DNA from: Escherichia coli
GTDB taxonomy: Bacteria > Pseudomonadota > Gammaproteobacteria > Enterobacterales > Enterobacteriaceae
Strand: one strand, 5' to 3'
Length of the DNA stretch: 64,000 nt
NCBI RefSeq assembly: GCF_041886205.1
Contig: NZ_CP169029.1
In this document: in pieces, positions 5,060 to 64,000 of the stretch
How positions within the stretch are numbered: position 1 is the stretch's first letter
Layout of the letters: every line of letters starts with the position of its first letter
Position numbers and translations under genes: made by a program
The notes under the pieces: model-generated
Database searches by the model: none
What the model saw: the letters and a program-made list of their open reading frames with translations, nothing else
What the model was told of the DNA's origin: nothing

Positions 5060-5180
5060 GGTTGCCGGATGTAAAATATGAAAAATATGTAGGCATGATA
5101 AGACGCGCCAGCGTCGCATCAGGCATCGAGAGCCAAATGCCAGATGCGGCGTGAACGCCTTATCTGGCCTACGAACCGAC
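5060..5180. repeat. REP/BIME cluster between ybaL and gsk
   Basis: Two or more REP units with the GCCTGATGCGACGC / GCCAGATGCGGCGTGAACGCCTTATCTGGCCTAC motif read directly. Confidence 0.6.
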
Positions 5181-12488: not shown

Positions 12489-14420
12489 TCAAATGGGGCG
12501 GATACTTTCTTCATCCAGCTCCGCATCGAAAAACCGACGCAGGGTCTGAATATTATTATCCGCAATAATGGACTCGCGCGCCTGCGCAAGTTTTTCTTCG
12601 TATATCGCCTGACGCCACTCCAGCGGCGTACGCACCGCGGGATTATCATCTTCAACGATAGTCAGTTCAACCGTTGAACCTTTTAACATGCTCAACGCTT
12701 CAGCCAGTTTTTGCTGTGCACCGCGGTTGTTCAAATGCCGCTGAGAGGAGCGCAAATGCAGACATACTGCGTTGTCGCTCTCCTCTTTCCAGGCATTTAA
12801 CGCCACCTGTTCGACCAGTTTTGGTAGCGAAAGTTGGCTCACCTGTGCCGCCCACGGGTCGCGCTCAATGGCTTCTGCCGCCAGCTTCGCCGCCAGTTCC
12901 GGCGTTTTTTCATGTTCCAGCGCTTTTTTCAGCGCCTTCGGCGTGGCGACCACTTCTTTTTGCTGCATCACTGGAGTGGTAGCCTTCCAGCGATACGCTT
13001 CTTTTTTGGCTGGCGCTTTTTCCAGCGCCGATGGCACCGGACGCGCCTGAACGCGATCGGTGACCGAAGCCAGTCTTTCCAGCGCAGCGTTATTCACCGG
13101 CCGCGCGCGGGTAGCGGCTGCCGGTTCACTCTTTTTTGCTTTGGTTGCTCCCTGCACGCGCTGCAACTGCTGGCGCGCCGCCAGCACCTGGCTGGTGGTT
13201 TCCGGGAGCGGTACAGTCGGTGCCTGCTGCGGCGCTGATTGCGGTTGCGGCGGCACCTGGGTTGGCGTCATTACTGCCGTTGGCGCGACGGGCGCAAAGG
13301 ACTGGCGTGGCACTTCTGGCTCAGGCAGAGGCATACGTGGATGGAACGCCAGCGCGCGCAGCAGCGTCATCTCAACGCCCATGCGGCGGTCCGGCGCATA
13401 CGGTAATTCTTTGCGACCAATCAACAGCGTCTGATAGTAAAGCTGAATATCCGTCGGCGGTATGGTGCGCGCCAGTTCACGCATCCGCAGCTCAATGGCG
13501 GCCATGTCGTTGCCAAGTGCAGCAGGCGAAAGTTGTACCATCGCAATACGATGCAACAGGCCGAGCATTTCCACCAGCAACGCTTCCCACTCGATACCAC
13601 GGGCAGCGGCTTCATTAATCAGCGCCATTACGCGCTCGCCGTTGGCCTCGACCATCGCTTCAACCAGCGACAGCGCCTGATCGTCATCAAGCGTACCCAG
13701 CATCGCACTGACTGCCTGGGTTGAAACCTGGCCGTCACCGCTGGCAATCGCCTGGTCGGTCAGACTTAAGGCATCTCGCAGGCTGCCTTCAGCGGCGCGC
13801 GCCAGCAATTGCAACGCCCGCGGCTCGTGAGCGATATGTTCTTCGTTGAGGATGTGCTCAAGTTGATGGCGAATTTGCTCGACATCCAGCGCCTTGAGAT
13901 GAAATTGCAAACAGCGCGACAAAATCGTCACCGGCAATTTCTGTGGATCGGTCGTCGCCAGCAGAAACTTAACGTGCTCCGGCGGCTCTTCAAGGGTTTT
14001 TAACAGTGCGTTAAAGCTGTGGCGCGACAGCATATGCACTTCGTCGATCAGATAAACTTTGAAACGACCACGCGCCGGAGCGTACTGGACGTTATCCAGC
14101 AGGTCGCGGGTATCTTCAACTTTGGTGCGCGAGGCGGCGTCGATTTCAATCAGATCGACAAAGCGCCCCTGCTCGATTTCACGACAGTTATCGCACACGC
14201 CGCACGGCGTCGCGGTAATGCCGGTTTCGCAGTTTAGCCCCTTCGCCAGCAGTCGGGCGATAGAGGTTTTTCCGACGCCACGGGTGCCGGAAAAAAGATA
14301 AGCATGATGAATACGCCCTAACGACAAGCCGTTCGCCAGTGCGGTCAGCACATGTTCCTGGCCGACGACGTCAGCAAAGGTTTGTGGGCGCCATTTTCGG
14401 GCTAAGACCTGATAACTCAT
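12489..14420 (-). CDS. dnaX: DNA polymerase III tau subunit (gamma by programmed frameshift)
   Basis: 643-aa ORF with AAA+ clamp-loader motifs; recognised as DnaX. Confidence 0.96.
   Translation of the reverse strand: MSYQVLARKWRPQTFADVVGQEHVLTALANGLSLGRIHHAYLFSGTRGVGKTSIARLLAKGLNCETGITATPCGVCDNCREIEQGRFVDLIEIDAASRTKVEDTRDLLDNVQYAPARGRFKVYLIDEVHMLSRHSFNALLKTLEEPPEHVKFLLATTDPQKLPVTILSRCLQFHLKALDVEQIRHQLEHILNEEHIAHEPRALQLLARAAEGSLRDALSLTDQAIASGDGQVSTQAVSAMLGTLDDDQALSLVEAMVEANGERVMALINEAAARGIEWEALLVEMLGLLHRIAMVQLSPAALGNDMAAIELRMRELARTIPPTDIQLYYQTLLIGRKELPYAPDRRMGVEMTLLRALAFHPRMPLPEPEVPRQSFAPVAPTAVMTPTQVPPQPQSAPQQAPTVPLPETTSQVLAARQQLQRVQGATKAKKSEPAAATRARPVNNAALERLASVTDRVQARPVPSALEKAPAKKEAYRWKATTPVMQQKEVVATPKALKKALEHEKTPELAAKLAAEAIERDPWAAQVSQLSLPKLVEQVALNAWKEESDNAVCLHLRSSQRHLNNRGAQQKLAEALSMLKGSTVELTIVEDDNPAVRTPLEWRQAIYEEKLAQARESIIADNNIQTLRRFFDAELDEESIRPI
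13131..13137 (-). promoter_or_regulatory. dnaX: dnaX programmed -1 ribosomal frameshift heptamer A AAA AAG (gives gamma subunit)
   Basis: Plus-strand cttttttgc at 13131-13139 is the reverse complement of GCAAAAAAG; encoded ...AKKSEP...; GC-rich stem-loop follows on the mRNA (13101-13128). Confidence 0.8.
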
Positions 14421-30726: not shown

Positions 30727-30840
30727 GGGTGGGGGCCCTGCCAGCTACATCCCGGCACACGCGTCATCTGCCTTGGCTGCTTCCTTCCGGACCTGACCTG
30801 GTAAACAGAGTAGCGTTGCGGGAGAACCAACAGAGCCCCC
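30727..30840 (-). ncRNA. ffs: 4.5S RNA (signal recognition particle RNA)
   Basis: Plus strand 30727-30840 is the exact reverse complement of the 114-nt E. coli 4.5S RNA as I recall it (GGGGGCUCUGUUGGUUCUCCCGCAACGC...GGCAGGGCCCCCACCC). Confidence 0.95.
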
Positions 30841-48413: not shown

Positions 48414-48600
48414 AGAGCTCTCTCTTAGTTTAATTTCCGCCAGGTAATCAGATGACACGACTGTGCTTCACGCCATCTATTAACATGTACGTCAGTATAT
48501 GGGGATGTTTCCCCCACATTCAACGCCGAGAATAGAGGAAAAATTAAAGGGGAGATAAAATCCCCCCTTTTTGGTTAACTAATTGTATGGGAATGGTTAA

Positions 48601-60487: not shown

Positions 60488-60506
60488 CACAACCTCTCAG
60501 TTAAAA

Positions 60507-60527
60507 AGGTGCTACGGCACCTTTTTT
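60507..60527 (+). terminator. rho-independent terminator of the cyo operon (AGGTGC-TACG-GCACCT + T6), A-run upstream so potentially bidirectional
   Basis: 6-bp stem, 4-nt loop, TTTTTT tract 20 nt after the cyoE stop. Confidence 0.7.
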
Positions 60528-60544
60528 ATTGTCTGAGATCAGAG

Positions 60545-60563
60545 ATACGGCTAATAACCGTAT
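60545..60563. promoter_or_regulatory. inverted repeat IR-A (ATACGG-N7-CCGTAT), candidate operator upstream of the antitoxin promoter -35
   Basis: Perfect 6-bp arms with 7-bp spacer read directly; same architecture as IR-B 55 bp downstream. Confidence 0.5.
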
Positions 60564-60566
60564 GTC

Positions 60567-60595
60567 TTGACAGAGTGAGCAGATGAACATAAATT
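60567..60595 (+). promoter_or_regulatory. candidate sigma-70 promoter of the antitoxin-toxin operon (-35 TTGACA, 17-bp spacer, -10 TAAATT)
   Basis: Consensus -35 hexamer at 60567-60572 and plausible -10 at 60590-60595, about 75 nt upstream of the antitoxin start. Confidence 0.5.
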
Positions 60596-60599
60596 AATC

Positions 60600-60618
60600 A
60601 TACGGTTGATAGCCGTAT
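60600..60618. promoter_or_regulatory. inverted repeat IR-B (ATACGG-N7-CCGTAT), candidate operator overlapping the predicted transcription start
   Basis: Perfect 6-bp arms with 7-bp spacer just downstream of the -10; contains the spurious ATG of the ORF-track frame at 60606. Confidence 0.5.
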
Positions 60619-60671
60619 TATGTATGAGATCGACTCCCTACGATTTCATTCAGTTAATCAAAGAGGTCATA

Positions 60672-60983
60672 ATGCCTGGAAAAACAGCCACTCTACCCGA
60701 TGTCGATAAAACGCTGAAAAATGCGCGGGTCGAACTCAAAACTAGTCCCGACGCCAAAAACAAACTTCGTGAAGCTGCGCAAGCCGTTGGGGTAGATTTA
60801 AGCGCTTTTATTTTGAGCGCTGCTATGGAACGCGCCGAAAGTGTGCTTGATAACCAACGTCGCCGTGAGCTTTCGAATCAAAGCTGGGAACTGATGAACC
60901 AACTCATCGCTGAACCTGCTCAACCGACGCTCGCCCTCAAGGCGTTAATGAAAAGGAAAAACAGCGATGGTCGACAAGCATGA
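60672..60983 (+). CDS. ribbon-helix-helix (DUF1778-like) antitoxin of a GNAT-type toxin-antitoxin pair
   Basis: 103-aa from MPGKTATLPDVDK, RBS AAAGAGG 6-7 nt upstream; RHH-like N-terminus (RVELKTSPDAKNKLREAAQAVGVDLSAFILSAAMERAESVL) resembling TacA/AtaR/KacA-type antitoxins; overlaps the toxin gene by 17 nt. Confidence 0.8.
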   Translation: MPGKTATLPDVDKTLKNARVELKTSPDAKNKLREAAQAVGVDLSAFILSAAMERAESVLDNQRRRELSNQSWELMNQLIAEPAQPTLALKALMKRKNSDGRQA

Positions 60984-61509
60984 AGAGATTACTCTGCCCA
61001 TAGTCCTCTCCTGTAATTATCAGTCTGATATTACTTATCCTGGGCAAAAACAGTTTGATTGCGGTAACCCTGTTATCGATAAATTTGTACGCGCATCGCT
61101 AAAGAAAAGTGTGCGTAATAGCGACTGTGCGGCTAAAGCACTTATTGACAGACAAAGTGGTGAACTGATCGGCATCTGTACTTTTACGGCATATTCGCTG
61201 GAAAAACAACGCGTTTCTGGCGTCCTTCAGGGTTCACAACCTTCAGAAATTGGTGTTGTCAGATTAGTCATGTTGGGGGTAGCACGGAAGTATCAAAAGC
61301 GGGGCTTTGGTCAGGACCTACTATGTGATTTTTTTGAACATGTAAAAATAATTCACCAGGCATTACCAATTAAAGGGGTTTATCTTGATGCTGACCCTGC
61401 CGCCATTAATTTTTATGCTCGTCTCGGCTTTGTTCAGCTTTCAGCGACACCAAATGCTTTTGGTGCTGTACCTATGTTTTTGGCGATTCAGCATATTCTC
61501 GCGGCTTAG
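60967..61509 (+). CDS. GNAT-family acetyltransferase toxin (TacT/AtaT/ItaT/KacT-like, probable aminoacyl-tRNA acetyltransferase)
   Basis: 180-aa ORF with acetyl-CoA-binding motif A (VRLVMLGVARKYQKRGFG), motif B (AINFYARLGF) and N-terminal FDCGNPVIDKFV typical of GNAT toxins; immediately downstream of and overlapping an RHH antitoxin. Confidence 0.85.
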   Translation: MVDKHEEITLPIVLSCNYQSDITYPGQKQFDCGNPVIDKFVRASLKKSVRNSDCAAKALIDRQSGELIGICTFTAYSLEKQRVSGVLQGSQPSEIGVVRLVMLGVARKYQKRGFGQDLLCDFFEHVKIIHQALPIKGVYLDADPAAINFYARLGFVQLSATPNAFGAVPMFLAIQHILAA

Positions 61510-61564
61510 ATTATTATCGCCACCCGCCAGGGCAAGTTTTGCCTCAGCCGGGGGCTGAGCAGCG

Positions 61565-62500
61565 TTACCACTTTTGTTCAATTGCCCCCGCTTTCAGCAA
61601 CTCCACATCCTTGCCGTTAATGGTTGCCGTTGCGGCAACGATTGTGGTCCTTACAGTTGCACAAGATTTTCGCTCAAATTCCGGTTTATAAAGAATAAGA
61701 GACGAATTACTGGTAAATGAACCAAATAGGTAATCAGTAAAGCTAATATTCAGCCGGTTTAAACCGAAAGGCGCGAAGCCAACCGTTTGGTTAATCTCCT
61801 TACCGGATGGGCGACGAATGCTGAATGTCACGCGAAGGTTGGCCACTTCGCCTAATTTATTGGTGGTGGCGAAGAGGCTATCCATGCAGGAAAAACCTTC
61901 ATCTAAAAAATTATCCCGCATCCCAGAACGGGTAACCGTGATCACGGGTAACGTATCGTCAACCGTTTTTCTGTCAATCATGTCTTTTCGACAAGTAGCC
62001 AGAAAGTCTTCCGGGCCACCATAAATGTGGACACCTTTATCAAGATATTCCTTCGCTTTCTTACAATCTACCTCAACATACTGACCATTGGCGTACATCA
62101 TGCCCAACCTGGACCATGCTAAATTCACACCGTATTGCGCGGCCTGATTAAATAGCGCATACGCTTTGGCATAATCCACCCGCACCTGCTCGCCGTCGTA
62201 GTAGATACTCCCCAGCGCTAACGGTGCTTCTCTGTCACCGTGTTTAGCGGCTAACTCGAACCATTTAATCGCTTCCTGAACATCAGGTTTGGTATCATAG
62301 CGAGGCTGATAATATTCCCAGCCTAACAGGCTCTGCGCGTCGGCACCCCCCGATTCAGCCATTTTATGCAGTGTATTTATAACATTGGGCGCAGGTTTAC
62401 CACCGTATATGCTGTCATACAATTCATGTGCTTTCTCGCTTGCCACCACGCCTGGTGAAACTATTAGCATTAAAGAAAATAGTATTCTTTTAGTTAACAT
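61565..62500 (-). CDS. secreted Sel1-like repeat (TPR-like) protein with uncharacterised C-terminal domain of about 150 aa
   Basis: 311-aa from MLTKRILFSLMLIVSPGVVASE (Sec signal peptide, AAAGG RBS upstream); about three Sel1-like repeats (e.g. AIKWFELAAKHGDREAPLALGSIYYDG, YAKAYALFNQAAQYGVNLAWSRLGMMYANGQ); C-terminal half not recognised; the ORF-track start at 62560 is probably over-extended. Confidence 0.8.
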   Translation of the reverse strand: MLTKRILFSLMLIVSPGVVASEKAHELYDSIYGGKPAPNVINTLHKMAESGGADAQSLLGWEYYQPRYDTKPDVQEAIKWFELAAKHGDREAPLALGSIYYDGEQVRVDYAKAYALFNQAAQYGVNLAWSRLGMMYANGQYVEVDCKKAKEYLDKGVHIYGGPEDFLATCRKDMIDRKTVDDTLPVITVTRSGMRDNFLDEGFSCMDSLFATTNKLGEVANLRVTFSIRRPSGKEINQTVGFAPFGLNRLNISFTDYLFGSFTSNSSLILYKPEFERKSCATVRTTIVAATATINGKDVELLKAGAIEQKW

Positions 62501-62907
62501 GTATACCTTTATGTTCTCTCTGTCATATATTTCCATAATAATTAACCACCAAACATCCATTTAATGAATAAATACAGTGCCATAAAGGCCCAAGTAATAA
62601 GCACACATTTAACCTGAAACATTATCATCGATGTCACCAAATCGTTTATTTAGTGAGATAAAAATAGCATGTTCGTAAGATAAAAAATGCACATAGCAAT
62701 CAAGAAATAATATTATTACTTTTGATGTAAAACTATTTAGCTTTAAGATTCATTTTTTTCAACATATAGAGCATTCATTTTATGAATGCAAAATAAACAT
62801 ACCTGACACACAAACTATTCTCCTCTGTAATATTTTCTCATTAACACTCTGTTTACCCAACATGCGCTCCGCACTACACTATGTGGGCATTTTTTTAAGG
62901 GGTGGTA

Positions 62908-64000
62908 ATGAACGATTATAAAATGACGCCAGGTGAGAGGCGCGCGACCTGGGGTTTAGGGACCGTATTCTCGTTGCGCATGCTGGGCATGTTTATGGTT
63001 CTGCCGGTTCTGACCACGTACGGCATGGCTCTGCAAGGTGCCAGCGAAGCATTAATCGGTATTGCCATTGGTATTTATGGTCTGACTCAGGCCGTTTTTC
63101 AGATTCCGTTTGGCCTGCTTTCCGACCGCATTGGTCGCAAACCATTAATTGTCGGTGGGCTGGCGGTGTTTGCCGCCGGTAGCGTTATCGCTGCGCTTTC
63201 CGACTCCATCTGGGGAATTATTCTGGGCCGGGCGCTACAAGGCTCTGGAGCAATTGCCGCCGCCGTTATGGCGCTGCTTTCCGATCTCACGCGCGAACAA
63301 AACCGCACCAAAGCGATGGCGTTTATCGGCGTGAGCTTTGGCATTACCTTTGCCATTGCGATGGTGCTTGGCCCGATCATCACTCACAAACTTGGGCTGC
63401 ACGCGCTGTTCTGGATGATCGCTATTCTGGCAACAACCGGCATTGCGTTGACCATTTGGGTTGTGCCCAACAGTAGCACTCACGTACTTAATCGTGAATC
63501 CGGGATGGTGAAAGGCAGTTTCAGTAAAGTACTGGCGGAACCGCGACTGCTGAAACTCAACTTTGGCATTATGTGTCTGCATATTTTGCTGATGTCGACG
63601 TTTGTTGCCCTGCCAGGGCAACTGGCTGATGCGGGGTTCCCGGCGGCTGAACACTGGAAGGTCTACCTGGCAACGATGTTAATCGCCTTTGGCTCGGTCG
63701 TGCCTTTCATTATCTACGCTGAAGTTAAGCGCAAAATGAAGCAAGTCTTTGTCTTCTGCGTCGGGTTGATCGTGGTTGCGGAAATTGTGTTGTGGAACGC
63801 ACAAACGCAGTTCTGGCAACTGGTGGTCGGCGTGCAGCTTTTCTTTGTGGCGTTTAATTTGATGGAAGCCCTTCTGCCCTCACTTATCAGTAAAGAGTCG
63901 CCAGCAGGTTACAAAGGTACGGCGATGGGTGTCTACTCCACCAGCCAGTTTCTTGGCGTGGCGATTGGCGGTTCGCTGGGCGGCTGGATTGACGGCATGT
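62908..64000 (+). CDS. yajR: MFS transporter YajR, N-terminal part (CDS runs off the window end)
   Basis: Open frame from ATG 62908 (MNDYKMTPGERRATWGLGTVFSLRMLGMFMVLPVLTTYG...) to window end without a stop; absent from the ORF track; recognised as YajR. Confidence 0.93.
   Translation, partial: MNDYKMTPGERRATWGLGTVFSLRMLGMFMVLPVLTTYGMALQGASEALIGIAIGIYGLTQAVFQIPFGLLSDRIGRKPLIVGGLAVFAAGSVIAALSDSIWGIILGRALQGSGAIAAAVMALLSDLTREQNRTKAMAFIGVSFGITFAIAMVLGPIITHKLGLHALFWMIAILATTGIALTIWVVPNSSTHVLNRESGMVKGSFSKVLAEPRLLKLNFGIMCLHILLMSTFVALPGQLADAGFPAAEHWKVYLATMLIAFGSVVPFIIYAEVKRKMKQVFVFCVGLIVVAEIVLWNAQTQFWQLVVGVQLFFVAFNLMEALLPSLISKESPAGYKGTAMGVYSTSQFLGVAIGGSLGGWIDGM

Follow-up and report, generated by a model that had tools for sequence, protein, structure and literature searches.

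The gene pair at positions 60672-61509 of the window, the whole stretch of 64,000 nucleotides of Escherichia coli DNA that was analysed, is, judged by its sequence, almost certainly the itaRT operon, a type II toxin–antitoxin system first characterised in E. coli HS; we put the probability of this assignment at about 97%. The module is not new, as it is already published for the identical sequence together with its biochemistry, structure and autoregulation. The only addition made here to what is known of ItaRT is a pair of palindromes around the candidate promoter, which provides a concrete and cheaply testable model of ItaRT autoregulation.

Identification of the operon

The first gene of the pair, itaR (60672..60983, plus strand), extends from an ATG at 60672 to a TGA at 60983 and encodes a 103-aa DUF1778/TacA-family antitoxin, the N-terminal part of which is of the RHH type and the C-terminal part of which binds the toxin. 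The second gene, itaT (60967..61509, plus strand), runs from an ATG at 60967 to a TAG at 61509 and encodes a 180-aa GNAT toxin, an aminoacyl-tRNA N-alpha-acetyltransferase. Two ORFs of 103 and 180 aa overlapping by 17 nt had been described here in an earlier note, which was made from the letters alone, and the six-frame ORF list and the raw sequence confirmed both the ORFs and their 17-nt overlap on the same strand. The operon is bicistronic with the antitoxin gene in first position, one upstream promoter candidate and a Shine–Dalgarno sequence for each gene, namely AGAGG at 60662..60666 (plus strand, read from the sequence) for itaR and the Shine–Dalgarno-like AAGGA upstream of the itaT start at 60967.

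The calculated masses of ItaR and ItaT are 11.36 and 19.80 kDa, respectively. These values agree with the published masses of 11.4 and 19.8 kDa (PMC6125619) and thereby support the identity of the two proteins. A longer, 125-aa form of itaR starting with TTG at 60606 is also contained in the mechanical ORF list. This start was rejected, as it lies just past the –10 hexamer and within the second of the palindromes described below. The 103-aa form is to be preferred, since it is annotated in RefSeq, since its mass fits the published 11.4 kDa and since the alternative TTG follows so closely on the –10 hexamer.

ItaR matches the Pfam family TacA1/DUF1778 (PF08681) with an E value of 1.3e-17 over model positions 1-78 of 80, and of the solved antitoxins it matches KacA (5ZGN_A, E 3.6e-11) and AtaR (6AJM_C, E 8.8e-09). 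ItaT matches the Pfam GNAT families Acetyltransf_7, _10 and _1 with E values of 1.6e-07 to 1.8e-05, and the Pfam search proposed in the earlier note therefore came out in its favour for both proteins. ItaT also has the two elements which the GNAT toxin class requires, a Q/RxxGxG/A acetyl-CoA loop (Q110-K-R-G113-F-G115, that is QKRGFG at residues 110-115) and the catalytic Tyr150, which is part of FYARLGF at residues 149-155; these are the motifs that had been named before, and both are present. Against the PDB chains of KacT, AtaT and TacT the E values were 1e-3 to 1e-6, at low identity. The solved structure nearest to ItaT besides ItaT itself is a 168-aa 'N-acetyltransferase' (PDB 9ILR/9ILS; 9ilr_A, E 2.3e-09), which is closer to ItaT than KacT, AtaT or TacT are.

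As an alternative, we considered a housekeeping role for the 180-aa protein, as an acetyltransferase either RimI-like or acting on small molecules, with an upstream gene that codes for an unrelated RHH regulator and no toxin–antitoxin link. Such a reading could point to the annotation, as RefSeq labels the protein only 'GNAT family N-acetyltransferase' and NCBIfam gave no specific model but only sub-threshold matches to MshD, PaiA and generic GNAT. The 180-aa protein, however, is identical to ItaT, for which toxicity, neutralisation by ItaR and acetylation of aminoacyl-tRNA are all published, and TacA1/DUF1778 is matched over its full length by the upstream protein. Moreover, the best PDB matches apart from ItaT itself, as counted against this alternative, are GNAT toxins of toxin–antitoxin pairs (KacT, AtaT, TacT), whereas RimI is matched only with E 0.047. 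The housekeeping reading, which the earlier note had named as a possible refutation, is itself refuted by the published experiments on the identical sequence, and we regard the chance that the pair is of this kind as negligible.

The assignment to itaRT is carried by the comparison with the characterised proteins. ItaT aligns over all 180 residues with chain A of PDB 7BYY and is identical at 179 of them (E 4e-118), the sole difference being G115 here and an engineered D in the crystal. This match and the Pfam matches of both proteins are of a strength that chance would not produce. PDB 7BYY is ItaT(G115D) of E. coli HS, and the mutation was made to inactivate the toxin for crystallisation (PMC7367177). 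Consequently, the window encodes wild-type ItaT. When the HS locus (NC_009800) was translated, ItaR was found to be 100% identical to WP_001297137.1 and ItaT 100% identical to WP_000227784.1. The HS chromosome has the same order of genes as the window (cyoE / DUF1778 / GNAT / TPR / yajR). Within the 1077 bp that separate the cyoE stop from the Sel1 gene, the window and HS differ at only 3 nucleotides, all of them just past the cyoE stop, and the flanking 10.6 kb are 98.7% identical.

With these results the suggestion that the module could be a divergent or uncharacterised member of its family falls, as both proteins show 100% identity to the characterised ItaRT of E. coli HS. The low identity to characterised members on which this suggestion was based does apply to KacT, AtaT and TacT, but not to ItaT; in the proposed comparison with TacT, AtaT, ItaT and KacT the 180-aa protein turned out to be ItaT and the others are distant. 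The class that had been assigned, an RHH/DUF1778 antitoxin with a tRNA-acetylating GNAT toxin as in TacAT, AtaRT and KacAT, was right, as borne out by Pfam, by the matches to KacA/KacT, AtaR/AtaT and TacA/TacT and by the identity to ItaR/ItaT. Its features are those of a textbook GNAT/DUF1778 toxin–antitoxin system, a class that was recognised correctly from the raw sequence.

Published function of ItaRT

Because the protein sequences are identical, the published function of ItaRT carries over to the module of the window. Expression of itaT alone in E. coli MG1655 led to growth arrest and blocked the incorporation of methionine within minutes, whereas coexpression of itaR restored growth (PMC6125619). 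The exchange Y150A abolished toxicity, and ItaR and ItaT copurified as a stable complex (PMC6125619). Toxicity was reduced by the exchanges G115D and Y150F, and the structure of ItaT, solved at 2.8 A, is a dimer (PMC7367177). The experiments that had been proposed for this gene pair, expression of the toxin with and without the antitoxin, mutation of the catalytic tyrosine and acetylation of tRNA in vitro, have thus all been published already for the identical sequence.

The substrate specificity, which had been thought not to be readable from the sequence, has likewise been measured for the identical protein, with Ile-tRNAIle as the primary substrate and Val- and Met-tRNA as additional ones (PMC7367177, PMC9177977). 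Acetylation of Ile-tRNAIle was reported for the E. coli HS protein, and Val-tRNAVal and Met-tRNAMet were described as further substrates (PMC7367177). By ribosome profiling it was found that ItaT pauses ribosomes at the Ile codons AUU and AUC, and peptidyl-tRNA hydrolase (Pth) counteracts its toxicity (PMC9177977). From the pausing at AUU/AUC and the effect of Pth, the physiological target of ItaT is concluded to be the elongator Ile-tRNAIle(GAU). The in vitro and in vivo reports differ in the breadth of specificity that they give to ItaT.

Regulation has been studied as well. A fragment upstream of itaR drives about 40-fold reporter expression; the ItaR–ItaT complex, with either active or inactive toxin, reduces the reporter to background, but ItaR alone does not (PMC6125619). 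ItaT was not observed to acetylate ItaR (PMC6125619). In the mechanism proposed for the module of the window, ItaT would act as a dimeric GNAT enzyme, and the acetylated aminoacyl-tRNAs would be barred from peptide-bond formation, with the consequence that ribosomes would stall at Ile codons and growth would stop. ItaR, a DUF1778/RHH protein, would bind ItaT tightly and neutralise it, and the ItaR–ItaT complex, rather than ItaR alone, would repress the promoter of the operon. These steps, acetylation, stalling, neutralisation and repression, are experimentally shown in the literature for the identical proteins.

Candidate promoter and operator of itaRT

The leader of the operon is 184 bp long. 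By a consensus scan a candidate promoter, PitaRT, was identified at 60567..60595 (plus strand), which is of the sigma-70 type with the sequence TTGACA-17 nt-TAAATT and matches the consensus in 10 of 12 positions. It is situated inside the upstream fragment for which the roughly 40-fold activity was reported (PMC6125619). Two copies of the palindrome ATACGG-N7-CCGTAT, which we infer to be candidate operators, are present in the same leader. Palindrome 1 (60545..60563, plus strand) lies just upstream of the –35 hexamer, and palindrome 2 (60600..60618, plus strand) lies just downstream of the –10 hexamer and over the predicted transcription start, which would fall near 60602, about 7 nt past TAAATT; the distance between the palindromes is 55 bp from start to start. 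These two are the only matches to ATACGG-N7-CCGTAT in the 64-kb window, as compared with 0.05 expected by chance.

By a distant blastn search against plasmids, itaRT-like operons were found in three other genera. The homologues are carried by plasmids of Citrobacter freundii (81% identity for ItaR and 78% for ItaT), Rahnella victoriana (65% and 71%) and Serratia marcescens (65% and 63%). All three have two palindromes of the form [A/G]TACGG-N7-CCGTA[T/C] around a TTGAC-type promoter, with start-to-start spacings of 55, 57 and 61 bp. The DNA matches of these homologues to the window start only within the coding sequence, yet the palindromes upstream are kept. In a four-way alignment of the leaders (one chromosome, three plasmids) the invariant columns are mostly those of the half-sites and the promoter hexamers, and the spacer between the hexamers has diverged. 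The two TACGG-N7-CCGTA palindromes bracketing the –35 and –10 hexamers are therefore probably the ItaRT operator, as far as can be judged from the leader sequences.

We also considered that the palindromes are not operators at all but remnants of a structural or recombinational kind, for example hairpins or the border of a mobile segment, and that ItaRT binds elsewhere in the 184-bp leader. In strain TR01 (see below) the left junction of the deletion coincides exactly with palindrome 1, which survives there without the operon, and a terminator scan also flagged palindrome 2 as a weak minus-strand hairpin. On the other hand, the palindromes occur in pairs flanking a sigma-70 promoter at four loci of differing context, with the TACGG/CCGTA half-sites and the N7 spacing invariant, while the bases around them diverge between the one chromosome and the three plasmids. 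In addition, RHH antitoxins of the DUF1778/TacA family bind palindromes at their own promoters, and the published fragment that gives ItaRT-dependent repression is part of the leader upstream of itaR, where both palindromes are found (PMC6125619). It is therefore rather unlikely that the palindromes are such remnants. As palindrome 1 is kept in TR01, which has lost the operon, its conservation within E. coli says little.

Taking the palindromes as the probable operator, we can ask how the repressor would be arranged on them. In KacAT and AtaRT a heterohexamer binds both arms of one palindrome (PMC6698736 for KacAT). By analogy with these systems, each of the two palindromes in front of itaR would be contacted by two RHH dimers of one toxin-bridged complex. 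Such an arrangement would also account for the lack of repression by ItaR on its own. We lean, with some reservation, towards a model in which ItaRT would repress by means of two toxin-bridged complexes that flank the promoter and possibly cooperate or loop the DNA, instead of using a single palindrome as described for KacAT and AtaRT. An operator or palindrome is mentioned neither in PMC6125619 nor in the searchable literature, the coverage of which is incomplete and does not prove novelty.

The variable segment between cyoE and yajR

The operon is part of a variable chromosomal segment of 2291 bp (60531..62821, delimited by BLAST against K-12), which comprises the two genes of the operon and, in convergent orientation, a gene for a Sel1-repeat protein. 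The segment is flanked by the terminator of cyoE on one side and the leader of yajR on the other, with cyoB, cyoC, cyoD and cyoE upstream and yajR downstream. The homology to K-12 stops at 60530 and resumes at 62822, and in K-12 a spacer of 17 bp is found at this place. The hairpin of the cyoE terminator (60503-60526) ends right before the edge of the segment. The GC content of the segment is 0.431 as compared with 0.528 in the flanks. A part at the right edge of the segment, from the start of the Sel1 gene to the yajR leader (62400-62999), is very AT-rich, with a GC content of 0.30-0.36 in a window of GC 0.51. Elsewhere in the window Rfam matches at the gathering threshold were obtained for the sraA sRNA (48485-48580, plus strand), the dnaX frameshift element (13092-13156, minus strand), naRNA4 (5092-5169, minus strand) and the small SRP RNA ffs (30736-30832, minus strand), all of which are ordinary features of the E. 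coli chromosome.

The itaRT operon was detected in 1367 of 5426 complete E. coli genomes, in 1238 of them with at least 99% identity, and in the carriers it is almost always found at a single chromosomal place. The empty spacer of the K-12 type is present in 4051 of the 5426 genomes. A different junction was found in the O157:H7 strain TR01 (NZ_CP033605.1), which has a private deletion of 2275 bp corresponding to positions 60564-62838 of the window; the promoter, itaRT and the Sel1 gene are removed by it. This junction occurs in one of the 5426 genomes, and it demonstrates that a carrier lineage can lose the toxin–antitoxin module. At least one other O157:H7 genome (PV15-279) has the spacer of the K-12 type. 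The idea that the differing spacers of K-12 and TR01 reflect repeated independent deletions was dropped in view of these frequencies (1 versus 4051 of 5426). Consequently, the locus is essentially biallelic, with one sporadic deletion in addition. This clean presence/absence polymorphism, with about 25% of the complete genomes on one side and about 75% on the other, could be used to probe the natural role of the module.

The Sel1-repeat neighbour gene

The third gene of the segment (61565..62500, minus strand) encodes a Sel1/TPR-repeat protein of 311 aa, annotated in RefSeq as 'tetratricopeptide repeat protein'; read from the first ATG at 62560 the protein would have 331 aa. It contains three PF08238 repeats at residues 73-175, its N-terminus resembles a signal peptide (MLTKRILFSLMLIVSPGVVASE...), and its C-terminal part of about 150 aa gave no Pfam match. 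A query wider than the operon matched 3478 genomes, which could suggest that the Sel1 gene is common in genomes lacking itaRT. This was not the case, as the excess over the 1367 genomes of the operon-only query comes only from the conserved flank with the cyoE terminator.

It might be argued that ItaR and ItaT cooperate with the convergent Sel1-repeat protein and that the module has three components. Both share one segment of 2.3 kb and always occur together in E. coli, the full 2.2-kb stretch being present in the same number of genomes (1367) as the operon. The gene is convergent, however, and hence belongs to a separate transcript, and the signal-peptide-like N-terminus of its product does not fit the cytoplasmic action of ItaT. 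Furthermore, it is missing beside the itaRT homologues of Citrobacter, Rahnella and Serratia, K-12 lacks it and yet ItaR alone fully neutralises ItaT there, and in some strains an IS3-family element interrupts the Sel1 gene while itaRT is still annotated. A contribution of the Sel1-repeat protein to the module is thus very improbable. Owing to its absence beside the homologues elsewhere and to the full protection by ItaR in K-12, we treat the Sel1 gene as a neighbour and not as a component of the toxin–antitoxin module.

Relatives outside the E. coli chromosome and comparison with defence models

The homologue from C. freundii (NZ_CP056338.1, 683-2327) is located directly downstream of a gene annotated as 'baseplate protein'. 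This plasmid is a non-mobilizable replicon of 98.8 kb, which may be a phage-plasmid, and its itaRT leader is about 115 nt longer than that of E. coli. In S. marcescens (plasmid NZ_OW849140.1, 1-2002) the homologue is found about 850 bp downstream of the gene for the replication initiator RepB, a position typical of plasmid addiction modules; the itaR homologue is annotated there as an N-terminally extended antitoxin of 120 aa. These locations, beside RepB and beside a 'baseplate protein', are in line with the mobile-element association usually seen for such modules, without establishing a function.

Matches of the E. coli sequence to 'plasmids' in PLSDB were discarded, as these records of 1.2 to 4.8 Mb are chromosomes or mis-typed replicons. 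Evidence for a phage-borne ItaT was not obtained either. In a tblastn search against phages a 100% identical itaT was obtained only in two 'Escherichia phage' records, OR845150.1 (6519 bp) and OR844664.1 (2270 bp), which are short and lack annotation and most likely represent packaged or contaminating host DNA; the remaining matches were only Streptococcus prophage GNATs with about 24% identity. Neither ItaR nor ItaT matched any of the PADLOC defence models, and hence a defence role is without support here.

Comparison with known GNAT/DUF1778 systems

The closest system is ItaRT of E. coli HS (Wilcox et al. 2018, PMC6125619; Zhang et al. 2020, PMC7367177; PMC9177977, 2022), which has the same gene order, the same 17-nt overlap and the same location between cyoE and yajR. 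Nothing of substance differs, the window being derived from another E. coli strain.

KacAT of Klebsiella pneumoniae (PDB 5ZGN, 5XUN; PMC6698736) likewise has its DUF1778/RHH antitoxin encoded ahead of its GNAT toxin. The antitoxins ItaR and KacA match with E 3.6e-11 and the toxins ItaT and KacT with E 2.7e-06, the toxin sequences being only distantly similar. KacAT is autoregulated through a palindromic operator at its promoter, described as a single palindrome that spans the transcription start (PMC6698736), whereas the candidate operator of itaRT comprises two separate palindromes around the promoter. Also, KacA alone binds its operator (PMC6698736), in contrast to ItaR, which alone does not repress (PMC6125619).

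AtaRT of E. coli O157:H7 (PDB 6AJM, 6AJN, 6GTS and related entries) belongs to the same family and acetylates the alpha-amine of aminoacyl-tRNA; the E values are 8.8e-09 for ItaR and AtaR and about 1e-05 for ItaT and AtaT. The toxins differ in specificity, as AtaT was first reported to act on Met-tRNAfMet and later found to be broad with a bias for Gly (PMC9177977), whereas ItaT acts on Ile. The two toxins were also assigned to different clades, AtaT to clade A and ItaT to clade B (PMC9177977).

The TacAT1-3 systems of Salmonella enterica (PDB 5FVJ, 7AK7-9 and related entries) combine a GNAT toxin with a DUF1778 antitoxin, for which the Pfam family is named TacA1, and as with ItaT their toxicity is counteracted by Pth (PMC9177977). 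The sequence matches to TacAT are weak (E 5e-4 to 0.1). Unlike ItaT, the TacT enzymes prefer Gly-tRNAGly (PMC9177977), and TacT acetylates its antitoxin TacA, whereas for ItaR no acetylation by ItaT was detected (PMC6125619).
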